Of a DNA stretch of 12,478 bases, positions 450 through 10,433 are shown piece by piece. Numbering within the stretch: position 1 is the first letter of the stretch; each line of letters starts with the position of its first letter. The notes below the pieces were generated by a model that saw only the letters and a program-made list of their open reading frames with translations, had not been told where the DNA came from and did no database searches. Made by a program: the position numbers and the translations under genes. The DNA is from an uncultured archaeon (lineage in GTDB: Archaea > Asgardarchaeota > Heimdallarchaeia > Heimdallarchaeales > Heimdallarchaeaceae), in the NCBI GenBank assembly GCA_964549075.1, contig CAZJUB010000076.1, forward strand, positions 1 through 12,478. The letters run 5' to 3'.

Positions 450-558
450 TGGTGGGGCAGGGCGGACTTTCAGTTGTTTACTCGCAAGTAAACAAAATTT
501 GAACCGCCGACTTCCTCCACGTCAAGGAGGTATCATAGCCAGGCTAGATCACTGCCCC
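450..558 (-). tRNA. tRNA-Val(GAC) with a 31-nt intron at 59/60 in the T-loop; CCA encoded
   Basis: Minus strand: GGGGCAG-TG-ATCTAGCCTGGCTATGAT-A-CCTCC-TT GAC GT-GGAGG-AAGTC-GGCGG-TTCAAA[31 nt]T-CCGCC-CTGCCCC-A-CCA. Acceptor, anticodon and T stems pair perfectly. Confidence 0.95.
467..497 (-). other. Non-canonical tRNA intron (position 59/60)
   Basis: Intron TTTTGTTTACTTGCGAGTAAACAACTGAAAG. It has a 4-bp central helix TTCA/TGAA with 3-nt bulges AAT and AGT, plus a 9-bp internal hairpin TTGTTTACT/AGTAAACAA. Removal restores the T-loop TTCAAAT. Confidence 0.88.
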
Positions 559-814: not shown

Positions 815-832
815 AGACAACATTTATAAAAA
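815..832 (+). promoter_or_regulatory. Putative TATA box (with BRE-like purines upstream) for the dpp operon
   Basis: AGACAACA-TTTATAAAAA, with TTTATAAA at 823-830, about 55-65 nt upstream of the candidate starts GTG884 and ATG893. Confidence 0.45.
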
Positions 833-883: not shown

Positions 884-3505
884 GTGATAATTATGGATAA
901 AAGTGTAGCAATTTCTCTTAAAATTGTTGGATTTCTCCTAATCTTTATCGCAGCTTTTGTACCTTTGTATGGTCTTGATTTTAATTCAACATCAGCAGAA
1001 CCAGAACCTATTGTATTAGTGGACACACAAGTTATAGCTTATGATTTAACTGCAGTCTATTATGATAGTGGCTATGCCTATGTTTTGACAGCTGATGCTG
1101 GGATGATAGTAATAAACGCAACCGACCCGATGGCATTAGATTCAATAGGTATCTACAGTATAACTGGGAGTGCTAATGGTATATTCGTGGATAATGATGT
1201 TGCTTATATTGCAGACACCGATACAGGGTTAGAAACTGTAAATGTATCAGATCCAACGACACCAACAAGTTTAGGAGCTTATAGCATCGCAGGCGGTGCA
1301 AATAATGTATATGTTGCAAATAATTATGCATATCTTGTAGATTCAACAGTAGGATTACAAATTATAAACGTAAGCACACCAGCAACACCAACATTTGAAG
1401 GAGAGTATAGTATCTCTGGTGAGGTTAATAGTGTGGTGGTTAAGGATAATGTTGCTTATGTAGTAGACTCTACAGTTGGGTTATACATTCTAAATGTAAC
1501 TGATCCAACAGATCCAACTTTAATTGGAACATATGAAGCTGGTAATTCAGTCTATGATGTCGATGTCAGAGGTAACTACGCCTACATTGTAGGAGAGAAT
1601 ATTGGCTTACAATCCATCAATATGACTAATCCAAGTACTCCTTTGCTAGCAGGTAATTATCAATTATCTGGAATAGTGAATGGGGTCGATATAGATGATA
1701 AATATGCTTATATTGTCGATTCCAGTTATGGAATGCATATTATTTCAATTATTGATCCAACAAACCTTTTTCAAGTAGGATCTTTTGAAACTCCAACAGA
1801 ATCAGTAGCTCTTTTCATTAAAGATGGATATGCATATGTTGTTGAAAATGGAACCGGTTTGGAAGTTTATAGTGTAAGACCTCGTCTTTACAAAAGCAGT
1901 TTTGGAAATCTTGTTGAAATATACAGTTTCAGTCTTGATTATAAACTCATAACTTATGATAATGTCAACAATATCACATTATCACGTTATCAACAAGCAG
2001 AAACCCCAAGCGCTGTAATAATATTAGCCGCAGCAATTTGGTTCTCGATTCTCTTCGCCCTTATGGCTATAGTGCTAGGACAAGTTTTCCAGAGTGGGGA
2101 TTTGAAATCAAGAGGTATAATTGCTGATATCTCAGGTGGTGTGCTTTTGCTAGTATCTCTAATAGCTGCTGTATTAGCCATGAACCGGGCAATGATAATT
2201 GCGGCTCAAAGATATTCAGCAACAATCACGGGACAGACTGCTCTTACGCTAAACCCTATAACATTCAATCCAAATGATTCTCATCCGGCTTATTTCGATA
2301 TAGCATTATCTGGAAGTATTGAACCTGGTTTCTACTTATTTGTAATTGGTATCTTTCTGATGCTTACAGGTATTTTCTTACCAGTCGATTGGCAAAAGCC
2401 AACAGGATCTAAAATGAGTAGGAGAATGGGACAGACAGGAGTAATTAAATGGATCAAGAATGTAGCTTCGTTAAGATTAACGACATATGTTACAAGAAGA
2501 CTATTGACTCTTATTCCGCTATTCATAGCAATATGTATTATGACGTTTGTAATGGTAAGTGGAATGGGTGACCCAGTAGCCCTTCTTCTATTAGGAAAAC
2601 AAAGAGTAACAGAACAGGACAGAATAAACCTTACGCGTAAATTGGGATTAGATCAACCGATCTATGTTCAGTTTGTAGTTTGGTTCTATAATTTACTTCA
2701 TGGTGATATGGGTACCAGTTTCCAATCAGGTCAATCTATCAACGATTTGATTGGTGGACTAGTTTGGGAAACTTTGAAGTTACAACTAGCATCATTTGTT
2801 TTTGCTTTATTAATAGCAATTCCATTAGGAGTTTTAGCCGCTAAAAATCAAAACACATGGATTGATTCAGCTGCTAGTGCATTTGCACTGTTAGGCCTTT
2901 CAATGCCAATATTTGTTTTTGGATTACTGTTAATATACATATTCAGCGGTTACGGATTAGGATGGTTCCCAGCTGCAAAAGCTCATAGAGTACCGACCCC
3001 CACCCCAGTATTTAGTAATACGAACTGGAGCTTATTCTGGGGAGGTAACTTTTCAACGTGGTGGGCAAATATATCTGATAGGTTATTGGATTCAATCATG
3101 CACATGGTTTTGCCAACTATTGCACTAACCTTTGCATCTATCGCTCTCTATACTAGGTTAGTGAGATCAACCATGCTAGAAGTACTTAGACAAGATTATA
3201 TCCTATCAGCCAGAGCTAATGGTCTTTCAGAAAGAGCTATTACTTGGAGGCATGCTTTCAGGAATGTTCTCATACCTGTAGTTACCTATGTTGGACTATT
3301 TTTAGCTTCAGCTCTTGCAGGAGCTCCAATTACAGAAACACTCTTCTCTTGGCCTGGACTTGGATTTAAATATGTGAGTGCAGTAAATCTACTCGACTTT
3401 CCGATGATATTGGGGACGACGGCATTGTTAACGATACTGATATTATTAGGTAATTTAATAACAGATATAGCTTATGTTGCTGTTGACCCTCGAATAGAAC
3501 TATAA
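884..3505 (+). CDS. dppB: Peptide/nickel ABC transporter permease DppB/OppB fused to an N-terminal 4-TM module containing a LVIVD-repeat beta-propeller
   Basis: Residues ~533-873 are typical DppB (YVTRRLLTLIP, GDPV, LGLDQPIYVQF, GDMGTS, EAA loop QDYILSARANGLSERAITWRHAFRN, ETLFSWPGLG, DPRI). Residues 55-331 are seven 42-aa LVIVD-type repeats. Extra TM helices lie at ~10-28, 377-400, 411-433 and 482-499. One uninterrupted ORF; start is GTG884 or ATG893. Confidence 0.93.
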   Translation: MIIMDKSVAISLKIVGFLLIFIAAFVPLYGLDFNSTSAEPEPIVLVDTQVIAYDLTAVYYDSGYAYVLTADAGMIVINATDPMALDSIGIYSITGSANGIFVDNDVAYIADTDTGLETVNVSDPTTPTSLGAYSIAGGANNVYVANNYAYLVDSTVGLQIINVSTPATPTFEGEYSISGEVNSVVVKDNVAYVVDSTVGLYILNVTDPTDPTLIGTYEAGNSVYDVDVRGNYAYIVGENIGLQSINMTNPSTPLLAGNYQLSGIVNGVDIDDKYAYIVDSSYGMHIISIIDPTNLFQVGSFETPTESVALFIKDGYAYVVENGTGLEVYSVRPRLYKSSFGNLVEIYSFSLDYKLITYDNVNNITLSRYQQAETPSAVIILAAAIWFSILFALMAIVLGQVFQSGDLKSRGIIADISGGVLLLVSLIAAVLAMNRAMIIAAQRYSATITGQTALTLNPITFNPNDSHPAYFDIALSGSIEPGFYLFVIGIFLMLTGIFLPVDWQKPTGSKMSRRMGQTGVIKWIKNVASLRLTTYVTRRLLTLIPLFIAICIMTFVMVSGMGDPVALLLLGKQRVTEQDRINLTRKLGLDQPIYVQFVVWFYNLLHGDMGTSFQSGQSINDLIGGLVWETLKLQLASFVFALLIAIPLGVLAAKNQNTWIDSAASAFALLGLSMPIFVFGLLLIYIFSGYGLGWFPAAKAHRVPTPTPVFSNTNWSLFWGGNFSTWWANISDRLLDSIMHMVLPTIALTFASIALYTRLVRSTMLEVLRQDYILSARANGLSERAITWRHAFRNVLIPVVTYVGLFLASALAGAPITETLFSWPGLGFKYVSAVNLLDFPMILGTTALLTILILLGNLITDIAYVAVDPRIEL
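1046..1879 (+). repeat. Seven tandem 126-nt (42-aa) LVIVD-like coding repeats, predicted 7-bladed beta-propeller
   Basis: Consensus VxxVxVxxxYAYxVDxxxGLxIxNVxDPxxPxxxGxY recurs with exact 42-aa spacing. VDSTVGL is encoded at both 1337 and 1463. Confidence 0.9.
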
Positions 3506-3520
3506 CATGGAGAATGAAAA

Positions 3521-4780
3521 ATGCAAAAAGTACAAGATACAGTAAAAATTACTTTCGCACAGAGACTAGATGAATATTTAGTAGAACATAGATTGCCTAA
3601 ATCAATGTCTTGGGCCGGAACACTAGCAATATTATGGAAACATTATTACCTAAATTTTGCTGTAGAATTCCTAGTAATAGTGATTGGTCTTGGTGTTATA
3701 GTACCAGCTTTTGGTGTTTCTGTTCAAAACGTAGGATTTGGTTCATTTACAGGTTTGGGAGTCTATATCCTATTTGTAGTGGTGTTAGCACTGATTTGGG
3801 TAGGGGTTAAATTTGCTTGGAGCTATTACCGGAAATCAACAGCAAAGAAAGAAGTCATTATAGCAAAAGATGGAACTTTGAGAGAGAGAAGCCCTTCTCA
3901 ATGGTCATTAGTTTGGAGAAGATATAAGAAAAACAAAGTAGCAACACTTTCTGGTATATTAGTCATTGCTATCACAATTCTAGCTATCGCTTATCCAATT
4001 CTGATGCCTTTCAGTCCAGTGATGACTGAACCACTTTTTGATGCATGGAATGGTGGAGGTTCGCTCTCTAATCCTAATCTGAAATATCCAGGAGGTACTG
4101 ATATACTAGGAAGAGATGAATTCTCAAGGCTTTTAGCAGGAAGTGAAGTTTCCTTGACAGTCGGAGTTTTTTCATCTGTATTATCGGTTCTTATTGGAGT
4201 GACACTTGGTGCTCTCGCTGGATATTATAGAGGTTGGACAGAAGAGATAATTATGAGATTAACTGATATGTTTCTAGCTTTACCATTTCTTGTTATTGCA
4301 ATCCTTGCTGTTTCCTTCATTAGAAGAGGAAGATTAGTCTTTCTTAGACAGATACCACAATCCATAGTTATCATTGTAGTTCTTGGTGTTTTTGGCTGGG
4401 CAGGTCTATGCAGATTAGTGAGTGCTAACACGCGGCAAATTTACAATTTAGACTATGTAAATGCTGCAAGAGTGTTAGGTGCAAGCAATAAACGTATCAT
4501 TATGGTACACATTCTGCCAAACATTTTAGCTCCAATTATCGTTATTGCAACAATCTCTGTAGCTGGAGGAATTCTTTCAGAAGCAGGTTTAACGTTTCTT
4601 GGTTTAGGTAGTCCAACTACAATTTCTTGGGGACAAATGGTTAACGATGCACAAACGGTGCTAAAAACGAATCCCGAATTAGCATTACTCCCAGGTTTTG
4701 CTATATTCTTTGTGGTATTGGCCTTTAACTTACTAGGTGACGCACTAAGAGATGCATTAGATCCAAGATTAAGAGAGTGA
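3521..4780 (+). CDS. dppC: Peptide/nickel ABC transporter permease DppC/OppC with a ~120-aa N-terminal extension (two extra TM helices)
   Basis: OppC N-terminal motif SQWSLVWRRYKKNKVA, GTDILGRD, GALAGYYRG, EAA loop DYVNAARVLGAS...HILPN, EAGLTFLGLG, SWGQM, GDALRDALDPR. GGAG at 3509-3512 precedes the ATG. Confidence 0.95.
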   Translation: MQKVQDTVKITFAQRLDEYLVEHRLPKSMSWAGTLAILWKHYYLNFAVEFLVIVIGLGVIVPAFGVSVQNVGFGSFTGLGVYILFVVVLALIWVGVKFAWSYYRKSTAKKEVIIAKDGTLRERSPSQWSLVWRRYKKNKVATLSGILVIAITILAIAYPILMPFSPVMTEPLFDAWNGGGSLSNPNLKYPGGTDILGRDEFSRLLAGSEVSLTVGVFSSVLSVLIGVTLGALAGYYRGWTEEIIMRLTDMFLALPFLVIAILAVSFIRRGRLVFLRQIPQSIVIIVVLGVFGWAGLCRLVSANTRQIYNLDYVNAARVLGASNKRIIMVHILPNILAPIIVIATISVAGGILSEAGLTFLGLGSPTTISWGQMVNDAQTVLKTNPELALLPGFAIFFVVLAFNLLGDALRDALDPRLRE

Positions 4781-4786
4781 TATAAA

Positions 4787-5818
4787 ATGACTGAAAAACC
4801 ACTATTACAACTAAACGACGTATATACCTATTTCTATACAGAATCAGGAATAGTTGAAGCTTTAGATGGAGTTACCTTTAATGTAATGAAGGGAGAACCT
4901 GTAGGAATTGTCGGTGAATCAGGATGTGGAAAGACTGTAACCGCACATTCAACTTTAAGGATTCTACCTAAGAATGGAAAAACAGTTTCCGGAGAGATAA
5001 TTTACAAAGGAGTTAACTTGCTTGATTTACCAGATTTACAAATGCGAAAAATCAGAGGTCAAGAAATTGCTATGATTTTCCAAGATCCAATGACAAGTCT
5101 TAATCCTATTTTTAGAGTCTCTGAACAGATGACTGAAGTAATCTCACTTCACAGAAAATGTAGTAAGAAAGAGGCATTAGAATTAGCTATTGAATCTCTT
5201 AATCAAGTAGGTATTCCTGAAGCTGAAACACGTATAACAGATTATCCACATCAATTTAGTGGAGGTATGAGACAAAGGATACTTATTGCAAGGGCGTTAG
5301 CTCTGCAACCAAGTCTACTTATCGCTGATGAGCCAACAACTGCATTGGATGTAACTATTCAAGCACAGGTTCTTGAAATCATCAAAGATATGCAACAAAA
5401 ACTAGGTTTAGGAATGATGCTTATCACACATAATCTTGGTGTAGTAGCCGAAATTACTAAAAGAGTACACATATTCTATGGTGGTCGTGTTGTTGAATCA
5501 GGATACACTGAAGACATATTTGTTAATCCAAAACACCCTTATACTTTTGCTCTTTTTGAAAGTATTCCAAGCTTAGAAAAAGATAAAACTCGTTTAGAAA
5601 CTATTCCTGGGAATGTGCCTAGACTTATCAATCCTCCAAAGGGATGCCGTTTCCATCCAAGATGTAAATATGCAACAGAAGTTTGTTCTCGTATTCGTCC
5701 TCCCGAACACACATTTGGAAGAGGACGTAGAGTAGCATGCCATCACTTTGAAGAATTAGATTTGCATATAGGTGAAGAAGCTTTACGAGAACGTACAATT
5801 GTACAGGAGGAAACCTAA
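4787..5818 (+). CDS. dppD: Oligopeptide/dipeptide ABC transporter ATP-binding protein DppD/OppD
   Basis: Walker A GESGCGKT, Q-loop IFQDP, signature FSGGMRQR, Walker B LLIADEPT, H-loop ITHNL, and a C-terminal HPYT plus Cys motif GCRFHPRC...C...ACH. Confidence 0.96.
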   Translation: MTEKPLLQLNDVYTYFYTESGIVEALDGVTFNVMKGEPVGIVGESGCGKTVTAHSTLRILPKNGKTVSGEIIYKGVNLLDLPDLQMRKIRGQEIAMIFQDPMTSLNPIFRVSEQMTEVISLHRKCSKKEALELAIESLNQVGIPEAETRITDYPHQFSGGMRQRILIARALALQPSLLIADEPTTALDVTIQAQVLEIIKDMQQKLGLGMMLITHNLGVVAEITKRVHIFYGGRVVESGYTEDIFVNPKHPYTFALFESIPSLEKDKTRLETIPGNVPRLINPPKGCRFHPRCKYATEVCSRIRPPEHTFGRGRRVACHHFEELDLHIGEEALRERTIVQEET

Positions 5819-5819
5819 G

Positions 5820-6860
5820 ATGTCATCAACATTCGAAGAATATGAAAGAGTTGATTTATTCTCTAAATGGGATGCAAAAACTCAACCAATTATTACCATT
5901 AACAACATGAAAAAATGGTTCCCAGTTAGTCAACAATCTATACTTTTCTCTCGAGTTGTTGCTCATATCAAGGCTGTAGATGGTGTAAATCTTTTTTTGA
6001 ATAAAGGTGAAACACTAGGTCTTGTAGGAGAATCAGGCTGTGGTAAGAGTACAACTGCAAAAGTGACTGTAAAACTTGAAGAACCAACTGAAGGTTCTGT
6101 TTATTTCAAAGGGATAGATATCTTCCAACCTATGAATAGAGAAGAAGAACTTGCAGTTAAGAGACAACTCCAGATGGTATTCCAAGATCCTTACTCCAGT
6201 TTGAATCCAAGAAGAATGGTTCTTGATTTAATCAAAGAACCTTTTGACATACACTTTCCAGATATGCTATATGAAGAGAAAGAAGCAAGAGTTCTAGAAA
6301 TTCTCGCTAAGGTAGGATTAGAAGATTATCACGCTCTGAGATATCCTCATGAGTTTAGTGGAGGACAAAGGCAAAGATTAGGAATTGCCAGAGCATTAGC
6401 TATTCATCCAGAAGTTATTCTGTTAGATGAGCCTGTATCTGCTTTAGATGTTTCTGTTCAGGCTCAAATCTTAAACCTGCTACATGATTTACAGAAAGAC
6501 TTCAATTTAACATACATGTTTATAGCACATGATTTGAGTGTTATCAAACATGTCTCAGATAGAGTAGCTGTGATGTATCTCGGAAAAATTATGGAAATGT
6601 CCCCAACGGGGAAGCTGTTCAGAAAGACAGCGCATCCTTATTCAGTATCATTACTTTCTGCAATTCCTCGTCCCGATCCTCGAATAAAAATGGATCGTAT
6701 CATTCTGGAAGGAGATGTTCCGAGTCCAATTAATCCACCTTCAGGTTGTCCATTCCATCCAAGGTGTTATAAAGCACAAGAGATTTGCTCCAAAGTTACT
6801 CCTGATCTTGAGGAGATAGAGTCAAATCACTACTCTGCTTGCCATTTTCCAGAGATTTAA
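5820..6860 (+). CDS. dppF: Oligopeptide/dipeptide ABC transporter ATP-binding protein DppF/OppF
   Basis: GESGCGKST, VFQDPYSSLNPR, FSGGQRQR, LLDEPVSALDVS, IAHDL, HPYS, GCPFHPRC...C...ACH. Start placed at ATG5820 (1-nt gap after the dppD stop, AGGAGG at 5805-5810) rather than GTG5772. Confidence 0.95.
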   Translation: MSSTFEEYERVDLFSKWDAKTQPIITINNMKKWFPVSQQSILFSRVVAHIKAVDGVNLFLNKGETLGLVGESGCGKSTTAKVTVKLEEPTEGSVYFKGIDIFQPMNREEELAVKRQLQMVFQDPYSSLNPRRMVLDLIKEPFDIHFPDMLYEEKEARVLEILAKVGLEDYHALRYPHEFSGGQRQRLGIARALAIHPEVILLDEPVSALDVSVQAQILNLLHDLQKDFNLTYMFIAHDLSVIKHVSDRVAVMYLGKIMEMSPTGKLFRKTAHPYSVSLLSAIPRPDPRIKMDRIILEGDVPSPINPPSGCPFHPRCYKAQEICSKVTPDLEEIESNHYSACHFPEI

Positions 6861-6899
6861 TTTTTTTCTCTCTTTTCTTTCTTATTTTCTTTATTTCTT
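6861..6899 (+). terminator. T-rich terminator of the dpp operon
   Basis: TTTTTTTCTCTCTTTTCTTTCTTATTTTCTTTATTTCTT begins immediately after the dppF stop. Confidence 0.6.
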
Positions 6900-6942
6900 G
6901 ATAAATGCAGATGTTTTTATTTTAGAAATTTAAGATTGCCTT

Positions 6943-7539
6943 ATGCATGGTTCTAAATACTTCAAGAAACGCTCATACACTTTCAGAGCTTTTCTTAGAG
7001 ATAATCTTCAGATGTTTAAGAACAGATCAGAAATTAAACAAATGAAGAAAGCTGGTAGAGTAAACCCTCAATTTGAAAAGAGGATAATGCTAGCAGTTAC
7101 TGCTGTTAATGGTTGTCGATATTGTGAATGGGGGCACACTCAATCAGCTCTTAATCTTGGTTGTAGTGAAGAAGAAATTAAACATATTATGATACATGAT
7201 TTTGGTTCATGTGATCCAGATGAAGTTATAGGATTGGCTTATGCACAACATTATGCAGAAACAGGGGGGAATCCTTCCTCAGAAAATTGGGAAAGATTAA
7301 TGGAATATTATGGAGAAGAAAAAGCCAAAGATATCCAACTTGTTATAGAAATGATCACGATGGGTAATCTACTGGGTAACACTCTAGATGCCTTTGAGAG
7401 CAGATTAAAAGGAGTTCCTCCTGAAAAAGGATCTTTTCTTTTTGAATTATTTATTTACAGTCTTGCACTTCCTTTTGTGTTAATTTTCAATAAAAAATAC
7501 ACTAAATGGAAGATGTCTAGTAACCCTCATCCAAGTTAA
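6943..7539 (+). CDS. Carboxymuconolactone decarboxylase / AhpD-like protein with a C-terminal hydrophobic segment
   Basis: IMLAVTAVNGCRYCEWGH (CxxCxxxH AhpD core) followed by GCSEEEI; C-terminal helix SFLFELFIYSLALPFVLIF. Confidence 0.88.
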   Translation: MHGSKYFKKRSYTFRAFLRDNLQMFKNRSEIKQMKKAGRVNPQFEKRIMLAVTAVNGCRYCEWGHTQSALNLGCSEEEIKHIMIHDFGSCDPDEVIGLAYAQHYAETGGNPSSENWERLMEYYGEEKAKDIQLVIEMITMGNLLGNTLDAFESRLKGVPPEKGSFLFELFIYSLALPFVLIFNKKYTKWKMSSNPHPS

Positions 7540-10326: not shown

Positions 10327-10433
10327 TGGCGCCACTCGTAGGACTCGAACCTACGACCTATCGGTTTTTGCAACCAATAGAAGCTCTAAAGGCCTTAACA
10401 GCCGATTGCTCTACCGAACTAAGCTAGAGTGGC
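10327..10433 (-). tRNA. tRNA-Asn(GTT) with a 30-nt canonical 37/38 intron; CCA encoded
   Basis: Minus strand: GCCACTC-TA-GCTT-AGTTCGGTA-GAGC-A-ATCGG-CT GTT A[30 nt]A-CCGAT-AGGTC-GTAGG-TTCGAGT-CCTAC-GAGTGGC-G-CCA. Confidence 0.95.
10366..10395 (-). other. tRNA intron at 37/38
   Basis: AGGCCTTTAGAGCTTCTATTGGTTGCAAAA. Internal GGCC/GGTT and TAGA/TCTA stems; central helix CTGT/GCAA has one C-A mismatch. Confidence 0.85.

Follow-up and report, generated by a model that had tools for sequence, protein, structure and literature searches.

A predicted beta-propeller, present in only part of its lineage, in the DppB-like permease of an Opp/Dpp/Nik-type importer operon of Heimdallarchaeaceae

The window analysed here is the entire 12,478-base contig C76 (CAZJUB010000076.1) of an uncultured archaeon of the Heimdallarchaeaceae, belonging to a metagenome-assembled genome (MAG) of 3.23 Mb in 217 contigs that is 89.7% complete with 3.4% contamination. 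The closest database proteins are named Candidatus Heimdallarchaeaceae or Heimdallarchaeota. The window carries a dppB-dppC-dppD-dppF operon for an ATP-binding cassette (ABC) importer, in which the first gene encodes a DppB-like permease with a predicted seven-bladed beta-propeller of the LVIVD family in its N-terminal part. We favour, with a probability of about 0.6, a binding-protein-dependent importer that bears the optional, predicted outward-facing propeller as an accessory module, not as a replacement for the binding protein. Importer permeases with a spliced-in beta-propeller seem to be new to the literature. A literature search, with subscription journals and supplementary files outside it, found among the papers listed no publication on a propeller in an ABC importer permease, as had been surmised in an earlier interpretation of this DNA made from its letters (hereafter the sequence-only reading), and public records label the fused protein only 'ABC transporter permease subunit'.

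The fused permease is encoded by the first of five consecutive open reading frames (ORFs) on the plus strand (884-3505, 3521-4780, 4787-5818, 5772-6860 and 6943-7539), which in this order encode 873 (counted from a GTG), 419, 343, 362 and 198 amino acids (aa). Pfam assigned LVIVD, BPD_transp_1_N (aa 534-610, 32.9 bits) and BPD_transp_1 (aa 645-872, 131.6 bits) to ORF1. Both permease matches lie above their cut-offs, and the LVIVD match reaches 92.1 bits against a cut-off of 20.2, with 5 stretches passing singly. The length of 873 aa given for DppB in the sequence-only reading holds for the frame opened at GTG 884, but the protein probably starts at ATG 893 and has 870 aa, because its orthologues begin at MDKS. 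The seven LVIVD repeats described in the same reading were recovered: seven 42-residue repeats follow one another in perfect register over aa 44-335, and AlphaFold2 placed 28 strands, equal to 7 blades, in this region, with a predicted local distance difference test score (pLDDT) of ~90 over aa 40-335. When the propeller model was compared with the PDB using Foldseek, all matches were propellers (E values down to 4e-12 at 8-18% identity); these were generic propellers only, from a phosphotriesterase, WD40 proteins and BamB, and did not point to a function. In the model, the LVIVD region is a closed propeller.

The propeller is predicted to be extracellular because the four extra helices, the basic linker and the acidic, sequon-rich loop together place it outside under the positive-inside rule. 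The outer loop that bears it (aa 33-377) contains 40 Asp and Glu against 9 Lys and Arg; of its 8 N-x-S/T sites, 6 lie in aa 44-335. The cytoplasmic linker ahead of the first transmembrane helix of the DppB core is basic, with 8 Lys and Arg in 37 residues. For the first transmembrane helix of the whole protein (TM1), AlphaFold2 predicted a helix at aa 5-23; the N-terminus is short and basic, and TM1 may act as a signal anchor. On helix count and charge distribution, the outward placement proposed earlier stands as a prediction. At the other end of the protein, the DppB core aligned end to end with E. coli DppB (8z1v_A, E 3.8e-61), and its best NCBIfam matches were Opp, Nik and DppB models, all under their curated cut-offs. 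The N-terminal addition of ~530 aa noted in the sequence-only reading is present, but it has two separate components: a membrane module of four helices, which is conserved, and a propeller that interrupts the first outer loop of this module.

The fusion is real and its architecture is conserved. A search with residues 1-530 returned 14 protein clusters of 850-871 aa carrying PF19300, PF00528 and PF08309, from several sources and at 45-92% identity, and orthologues with the same Pfam set span 850-884 aa. An open frame of 870-884 aa, running from query positions 1-3 through 873, was found in 11 of 18 same-genus genomes. Contigs of two other salt-marsh DNA runs (X6 and X7), neither flagged as a possible source of the assembly, cover positions 618-1170, 1377-1989, 2006-2593 and 2342-3950 of the window with 0-1 differences and no indels, so that all three junctions are bridged; the bridged part includes nucleotides (nt) ~2380-2480, where an earlier suggestion had been to look for a stop or frameshift. 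Since the window spans one entire 12.5-kb contig and belongs to a MAG with the completeness and contamination given above, we considered that the fusion might be an artefact of assembly or gene calling that joined a surface-protein gene to dppB. The recurrence of the same open frame in many independent assemblies from several sources, the bridging X6 and X7 contigs and the conservation of the junction sequences across four clades (see below) reduce this to a negligible chance. Contig pieces from RNA library X17 are identical to the window at 1014-1164, 1253-1403 and 1854-2029 and in dppF, and those from RNA library X15 are ~95% identical across dppB, dppC and dppD, which suggests that the operon is expressed.

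The same searches returned propeller-less proteins of 565-590 aa, and the propeller-less orthologues as a whole span 565-601 aa. Each is the same protein minus exactly the propeller: TM1, the stalk, three helices and the DppB core are kept, and a 15-residue linker stands at the propeller site. Because these short forms keep the four-helix module, we regard the propeller as having been inserted into the first outer loop of a permease that was extended beforehand. The module itself has many invariant columns in a 25-row alignment (e.g. LGQVFQSG and TFNPND), and every one of its 27 homologues is fused to DppB. No stand-alone or split form of the module was found among proteins shorter than 480 aa, and it has no Pfam match. 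Its ESM Atlas scores of at most 0.82 lie in the range of chance. Local searches with the module and with the N-terminal extension of the dppC-like permease, run against the organism's own genome and against the permease extensions encoded on another of its contigs, C10 (see below), found nothing.

The distribution of the two forms shows that close relatives differ. Among 16 Heimdall-type loci from species-representative genomes, 5 have the propeller and 11 lack it, the latter including two complete Candidatus Heimdallarchaeum chromosomes. Within the genus of the window, the propeller form was found in 11 of 18 genomes and the short form in 5, with no match in the remaining 2 (86% and 89% complete); all 17 genus genomes with a match, our own included, have a single one. 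A tree of 45 proteins, built with the propeller columns left out, requires at least four gains or losses, a minimum imposed by branches with good support; four clades hold the propeller forms, and no propeller occurs in the midpoint-basal lineages. Motifs at the junctions (…EPEP… and …VRPR…) are common to all four propeller clades and, because they are shared in this way, favour a single origin. In a tree of the propellers, those of the permeases clustered against 7 outgroup LVIVD segments and repeated the AB|CD split of the core, with a support of only 90, unstarred; 21 of 28 outgroup candidates had been dropped by a coverage filter. A single insertion followed by repeated loss or exchange is therefore favoured, not proven. 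Recruitment of the propellers from independent sources was considered and set aside on the shared motifs and this grouping.

The propeller evolves faster than the rest of the protein. Between clades, identity is 36-54% in the propeller, 55-63% in the module and 80-85% in the core, and within one clade the ratio of nonsynonymous to synonymous substitution rates (dN/dS) is 0.23-0.32 in the propeller in 9 of 10 pairs, as against 0.06-0.11 in the core. The propellers of the tenth pair, the dppB genes of loci L011 and L013, show almost no differences (dN/dS 0.77), and dS in this pair rises from 0.010 for the propeller to 0.198 for the module and 0.235 for the core. Such a mosaic suggests that lineages have recently exchanged the propeller segment by recombination. 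The 25-row alignment has no invariant column within the propeller, an observation of little weight because 11 of its rows have no propeller. Given a dN/dS of ~0.3, the optional occurrence and the fast divergence, we take the propeller to be kept by selection where it is present, to be dispensable in the family as a whole, and to evolve like a surface-exposed interaction domain.

We then consider the binding protein. No solute-binding family was matched in a Pfam scan of the 10 ORFs of the window, in agreement with the sequence-only reading. The tie that this reading drew between the missing gene and the built-in propeller does not hold: orthologous operons whose permease has no propeller are equally without a nearby binding-protein gene. 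A profile of family 5 solute-binding proteins, made from the 14 such proteins of the genome itself, gave 0 matches at E values up to 10 in the ORFs of 17 loci with flanks of up to 10 kb, and a complete genome among the relatives has no family-5 match near the operon. Pfam analysis of the upstream neighbours in related loci revealed no binding protein and no consistent functional partner; these neighbours include NosD/beta-helix, PALP enzyme, acyltransferase, Cas12f-like protein and formate-dehydrogenase-like genes.

Binding proteins are nevertheless abundant elsewhere. The genome has 14 SBP_bac_5 genes above the Pfam cut-off, and only the one on contig C10 adjoins Opp-type permeases; the other 13 are orphans of the kind that the sequence-only reading had proposed to look for. 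In each of five relatives, some with the propeller and some lacking it, 10-22 family-5 matches were counted. Because such genes are scattered in these genomes, the missing operonic gene is weak evidence. At the threshold used, 12 of the 14 family-5 proteins have a C-terminal hydrophobic anchor, and most also have a basic tail; anchored in this way, they would be membrane-tethered and free to reach any translocator. As a side observation, the C10 operon (L028:2339-6390) encodes oversized permeases beside its family-5 gene (DppB 518 aa, DppC 828 aa), whose long many-helix N-terminal extensions match no Pfam family and show no similarity to the module in the window.

The docking loop of the permease has been retained. 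The 'GKQR' position of the scoop loop is invariant or nearly so in 25 sequences, and the motif aligns gap-free at the loop to E. coli DppB, with K-Q in place of E41-R42. According to the available part of the E. coli work (PMC12136057), the Dpp translocator alone is without ATPase activity and needs DppA, whose cleft the scoop motif enters. Together, the scoop motif and the 13 orphan genes favour what had been entered earlier as a caveat, namely that a binding protein is supplied in trans to a permease that keeps its docking loop. We consider it probable, with good confidence, that the importer depends on a binding protein.

A different role could be proposed for the propeller, that of a substrate receptor which hands its ligand to the permease so that no classical binding protein is needed. 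In its favour, the window and the flanks of up to 10 kb in 17 loci are free of binding-protein genes, the propeller would be tethered outside, beside the translocator, and covalently tethered receptors are known in other ABC importers, GlnPQ for example, as far as the available part of the sources describes them. We nevertheless judge this role very improbable. Single-copy orthologues that have no propeller are likewise without a nearby binding-protein gene, the genome holds the 13 orphan family-5 genes, and the scoop motif, which is active inside the binding-protein cleft in E. coli, is nearly invariant. The propeller diverges fast and has no invariant column in the 25-row alignment, 11 rows of which have no propeller. 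We know of no propeller that serves as the receptor of an ABC importer. A further point against a receptor comes from a second propeller-bearing permease in the same genome, which has an adjacent binding-protein gene.

This second gene, on contig C53 (C53:15851-18420, equal to L026:7852-10419), is cut by the contig end and encodes an unrelated ABC permease. Its LVIVD region (E 4e-23) sits between the first helix and a PhnU2/ModB-like double membrane domain (BPD_transp_1). Of 18 same-genus genomes, 15 have a full-length fusion of this type, in frames of 958-1106 aa, and one more has a truncated match; orthologues in other families of the order have 623-654 aa and membrane domains only. Identity among the fusions is 43-58% in the propeller versus 83-88% in the membrane domains. 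A binding-protein gene lies directly upstream of the permease gene in 7 of 7 loci. A full-length orthologue of the encoded protein matches SBP_bac_8 (63 bits) and SBP_bac_6 (55.6 bits) past the curated cut-offs, and at E values up to 0.01 SBP_bac_6 is matched by 8 of 8 of these proteins and SBP_bac_8 by 7 of 8. Propeller and binding protein clearly coexist in the C53 system, which serves as a natural control for the idea that a propeller stands in for a binding protein. An AlphaFold2 model of the adjacent binding protein, made from an 8-row alignment, has a mean pLDDT of 33, and the identity of the protein rests on the Pfam matches of its orthologues. A complex prediction for the propeller of the C53-type permease of locus L030 (aa 60-436) with the adjacent binding protein scored 0.17 and 0.02 against a mark of 0.32 and is evidence neither way.

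The genome has 12 LVIVD ORFs, and 10 of these resemble ordinary surface proteins with a terminal membrane anchor. Three LVIVD proteins of ~365 aa, on contigs C109, C12 and C67, have a single propeller framed by one helix at each terminus, and are possible relatives of the unit spliced into the permeases.

Such surface proteins bring in a third role, in which the propeller is an envelope module with no part in the chemistry of transport and with the permease as a mere anchor. It might serve adhesion to particles or partner cells, set the distance from the surface layer or the attachment to it, or form a variable shield that protects an exposed membrane complex from viruses. The LVIVD repeat was defined in archaeal cell-surface proteins (PMC2447325, in the part of the source available), and most of the LVIVD ORFs here are of the anchored surface type. 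The fast divergence of the propeller, its repeated gain or loss and the recombinational exchange suggested by one pair of loci (dS of 0.010 in the propeller versus 0.235 in the core) would all suit an envelope module, as would the presence of the same kind of domain on two unrelated importers. Purifying selection at a dN/dS of ~0.3 fits a role in transport or in the envelope alike. However, the domain has been grafted twice into the first outer loop of importer permeases and not into arbitrary membrane proteins, which points to a link with uptake. We regard a purely envelope role as possible but rather unlikely.

In the binding-protein-dependent importer with an accessory propeller, which we prefer, the translocator is of the Opp/Dpp type (DppB, DppC, DppD and DppF), its DppB is extended by a lineage-specific four-helix N-terminal module, and in part of the lineage the predicted LVIVD propeller of ~290 aa sits in the first outward loop of this module. 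Family-5 binding proteins encoded elsewhere, mostly C-terminally anchored, would deliver the substrate and would dock on DppB and DppC as is usual for such importers, through the conserved scoop motif. The propeller would most plausibly keep a partner near the mouth of the transporter; candidates are an anchored binding protein, a hydrolase outside the cell, a substrate of polymeric nature and the envelope. The architecture, its conservation, its optional occurrence and the set of orphan binding-protein genes are shown by the data, whereas the outward orientation, delivery in trans and any propeller partner are inferred. Capture, docking and adhesion, the roles put forward in the sequence-only reading, are hypotheses at this stage. 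That the propeller is accessory we hold with even better confidence than the dependence on a binding protein; the choice of any single partner is tentative at best.

Several points weigh against this account. None of the 13 orphan genes is tied to the operon by synteny, co-expression or modelling. The K-Q of the scoop loop differs from E41-R42 of E. coli, and the docking chemistry is not transferable. AlphaFold2, given the whole fused permease, modelled only the propeller with confidence; most of aa 336-873 falls under a pLDDT of 50, so that the membrane part is not reliably modelled and the propeller is not placed with respect to the docking surface or the channel. The four-helix module is strongly conserved and may be of greater importance for the mechanism than the propeller. 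In the C53 system, the genome's own copy of the binding-protein gene (L026:6406-7710, equal to C53:14405-15712) falls below the Pfam cut-off and is without ~65 internal residues that are present in all 7 orthologues; it may be a deleted or frameshifted gene. Finally, contigs from RNA libraries do not prove transcription.

By its four core subunits the operon is, judged from sequence, a member of the Opp/Dpp/Nik family. It resembles E. coli DppABCDF and other Opp/Dpp/Nik systems in its DppB- and DppC-type permeases, its two oligo_HPY ATPases with four-cysteine clusters and its scoop motif (8z1v-8z1z; PMC12136057, as far as available). Unlike E. coli Dpp, it has no operonic binding-protein gene, its DppB is longer by ~530 N-terminal residues and its DppC by ~125, and the residues of its scoop loop differ. 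As the accessible parts of two further sources describe, DppBCDF of P. aeruginosa is served by DppA1-A5 (PMC4206461) and the Opp system of Borrelia is similarly shared (PMC7822543). These systems are alike in that not all binding proteins are co-encoded, which is a precedent for supply in trans; their permeases are of normal size, whereas here 13 of 14 family-5 genes are orphans and most encode a C-terminal anchor. The LVIVD surface proteins (PF08309; PMC2447325, available part) have the 42-residue repeats in common with the domain in ORF1, and an extracellular location as is predicted for it, and 10 ordinary anchored ones are encoded in this genome; unlike these, the permease has a single seven-blade unit embedded within a polytopic transporter subunit.

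GlnPQ and OpuA, as described in the available parts of the sources, also have an extracytoplasmic domain tethered to a membrane subunit of a type I importer. Their fused domains are bilobed and deliver the substrate, whereas the domain here is a beta-propeller, is optional, and in the C53 system stands beside a binding protein encoded by a gene of its own. With a propeller and no solute-binding Pfam match in ORF1, the system is not an importer of the GlnPQ/OpuA type. The known extracellular additions of type I ABC importers are either binding domains, as in GlnPQ and OpuA, or the P2 loop of MalF. MalF has extra N-terminal helices and a large folded periplasmic loop, P2, which contacts the maltose-binding protein; P2 is not a propeller, lies elsewhere in the succession of helices and is not known to be an optional cassette. 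For a docking role, P2 would be the best functional analogy, in architecture only and with no relationship in sequence. No MalF model was among the NCBIfam matches of ORF1.

In importer permeases of one Asgard genus, a propeller thus occurs twice, in unrelated systems, and is optional between close relatives. If it docks binding proteins or hydrolases, this would be a new mode of surface nutrient capture in archaea without a closed periplasm. Orthologue pairs with and without the propeller are natural deletion controls. A broader idea, which we find rather unlikely, is that in this Heimdall genus single LVIVD propellers are portable surface cassettes that have been spliced at least twice, independently, into the first outer loop of different importer permeases, one of the Opp/Dpp type and one a PhnU2/ModB-like double permease, and that have been exchanged or discarded by recombination, forming a new tethered class of capture or docking domains that differs from the classical binding domains. 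If this is true, the cassette would couple surface-held binding proteins, hydrolases, polymers, particles or partner cells to uptake. Another large permease was seen in the same genome: on contig C11 (L027:1889-5086), a gene flanked by those of an SBP_bac_1 protein and an ATPase encodes a 1065-aa fused double permease. Its N-terminal helix leads into an outward part of ~165 aa, fibronectin-III-like by eye, and a long polytopic stretch stands between its two membrane domains; neither of these additions has a Pfam match.

The coordinates of the operon and its surroundings are collected in Table 1.

Table 1. Features of the operon and its boundaries, in positions of the 12,478-base window
Feature	Position	Strand	Basis and remarks
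tRNA-Val(GAC)	~454..558	-	~30-nt non-canonical intron in T-arm; upstream boundary of operon; coordinates approximate
TTTATAAA, candidate archaeal TATA box	823..830	+	read from sequence; ~63 nt upstream of ATG 893
Fused permease gene (dppB)	884..3505	+	ORF opens at GTG 884; order TM1, propeller, four-helix module, DppB core
TM1 (aa 14-32), predicted	923..979	+	inside to outside; hydropathy and charge counts
Predicted seven-bladed LVIVD beta-propeller (aa 44-335)	1013..1888	+	Pfam LVIVD, repeat register, AlphaFold2
Stalk and family-specific membrane module (aa 336-532)	1889..2479	+	TM2-TM4, two short outer segments, basic cytoplasmic linker
Full-length DppB core (aa 533-873)	2480..3505	+	scoop motif and BPD_transp_1
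dppC-like permease gene	3521..4780	+	Pfam OppC_N and BPD_transp_1; ~125-aa N-terminal extension with two extra predicted helices
dppD, ATPase	4787..5818	+	Pfam ABC_tran and oligo_HPY; four C-terminal cysteines
dppF, ATPase	5820..6860	+	Pfam ABC_tran and oligo_HPY; ORF opens at GTG 5772
T-rich tract	6861..6900	+	after dppF stop; sequence only

The ORF list and the Pfam matches bear out the gene order claimed in the sequence-only reading. In the dppC-like protein, OppC_N begins at aa 126 (46.1 bits) and BPD_transp_1 reaches 114.1 bits; orthologues have 366-450 aa, and the best NCBIfam match, Opp4C, is under its equivalog cut-off. The start of dppF is probably ATG 5820, immediately past the dppD stop. 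The cysteines of DppD at 287, 293, 300 and 318 have the same spacing as the [4Fe-4S] ligands of E. coli DppD, given as C284, C290, C297 and C315 in the available part of PMC12136057, and those of DppF at 326, 332, 339 and 357 have an E. coli-like spacing; both sets are putative iron-sulfur cluster ligands. The NCBIfam matches to nickel, peptide and glutathione models are all under their equivalog cut-offs and do not establish a substrate class (peptide, nickel or oligosaccharide). In one propeller-less lineage, a divergent Peptidase_S9 gene (prolyl-oligopeptidase family; L024:7291-9114, minus strand, and L021) adjoins the operon, and is the sole neighbour that hints at a peptide substrate.

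The boundaries described earlier were recovered as well. The divergent tRNA-Val gene upstream was missed by ARAGORN and by Rfam on the intact sequence, and ARAGORN calls tRNA-Val(gac) on the minus strand once 29-33 nt of the T-arm are excised. The gene is unusual in bearing an intron: the stretch removed from the T-arm is a non-canonical one. Between this gene and dppB, TTTATAAA is a putative TATA box. Downstream, the T-tract past dppF is visible in the sequence and is likely to be an archaeal terminator, and the AhpD gene that follows was matched to the CMD (AhpD-like) family by Pfam (ORF5, E 4e-10). A further tRNA of 104 nt, at 10330-10433 on the minus strand, was detected by Rfam (58.2 bits) and missed by ARAGORN, and presumably also contains an intron.

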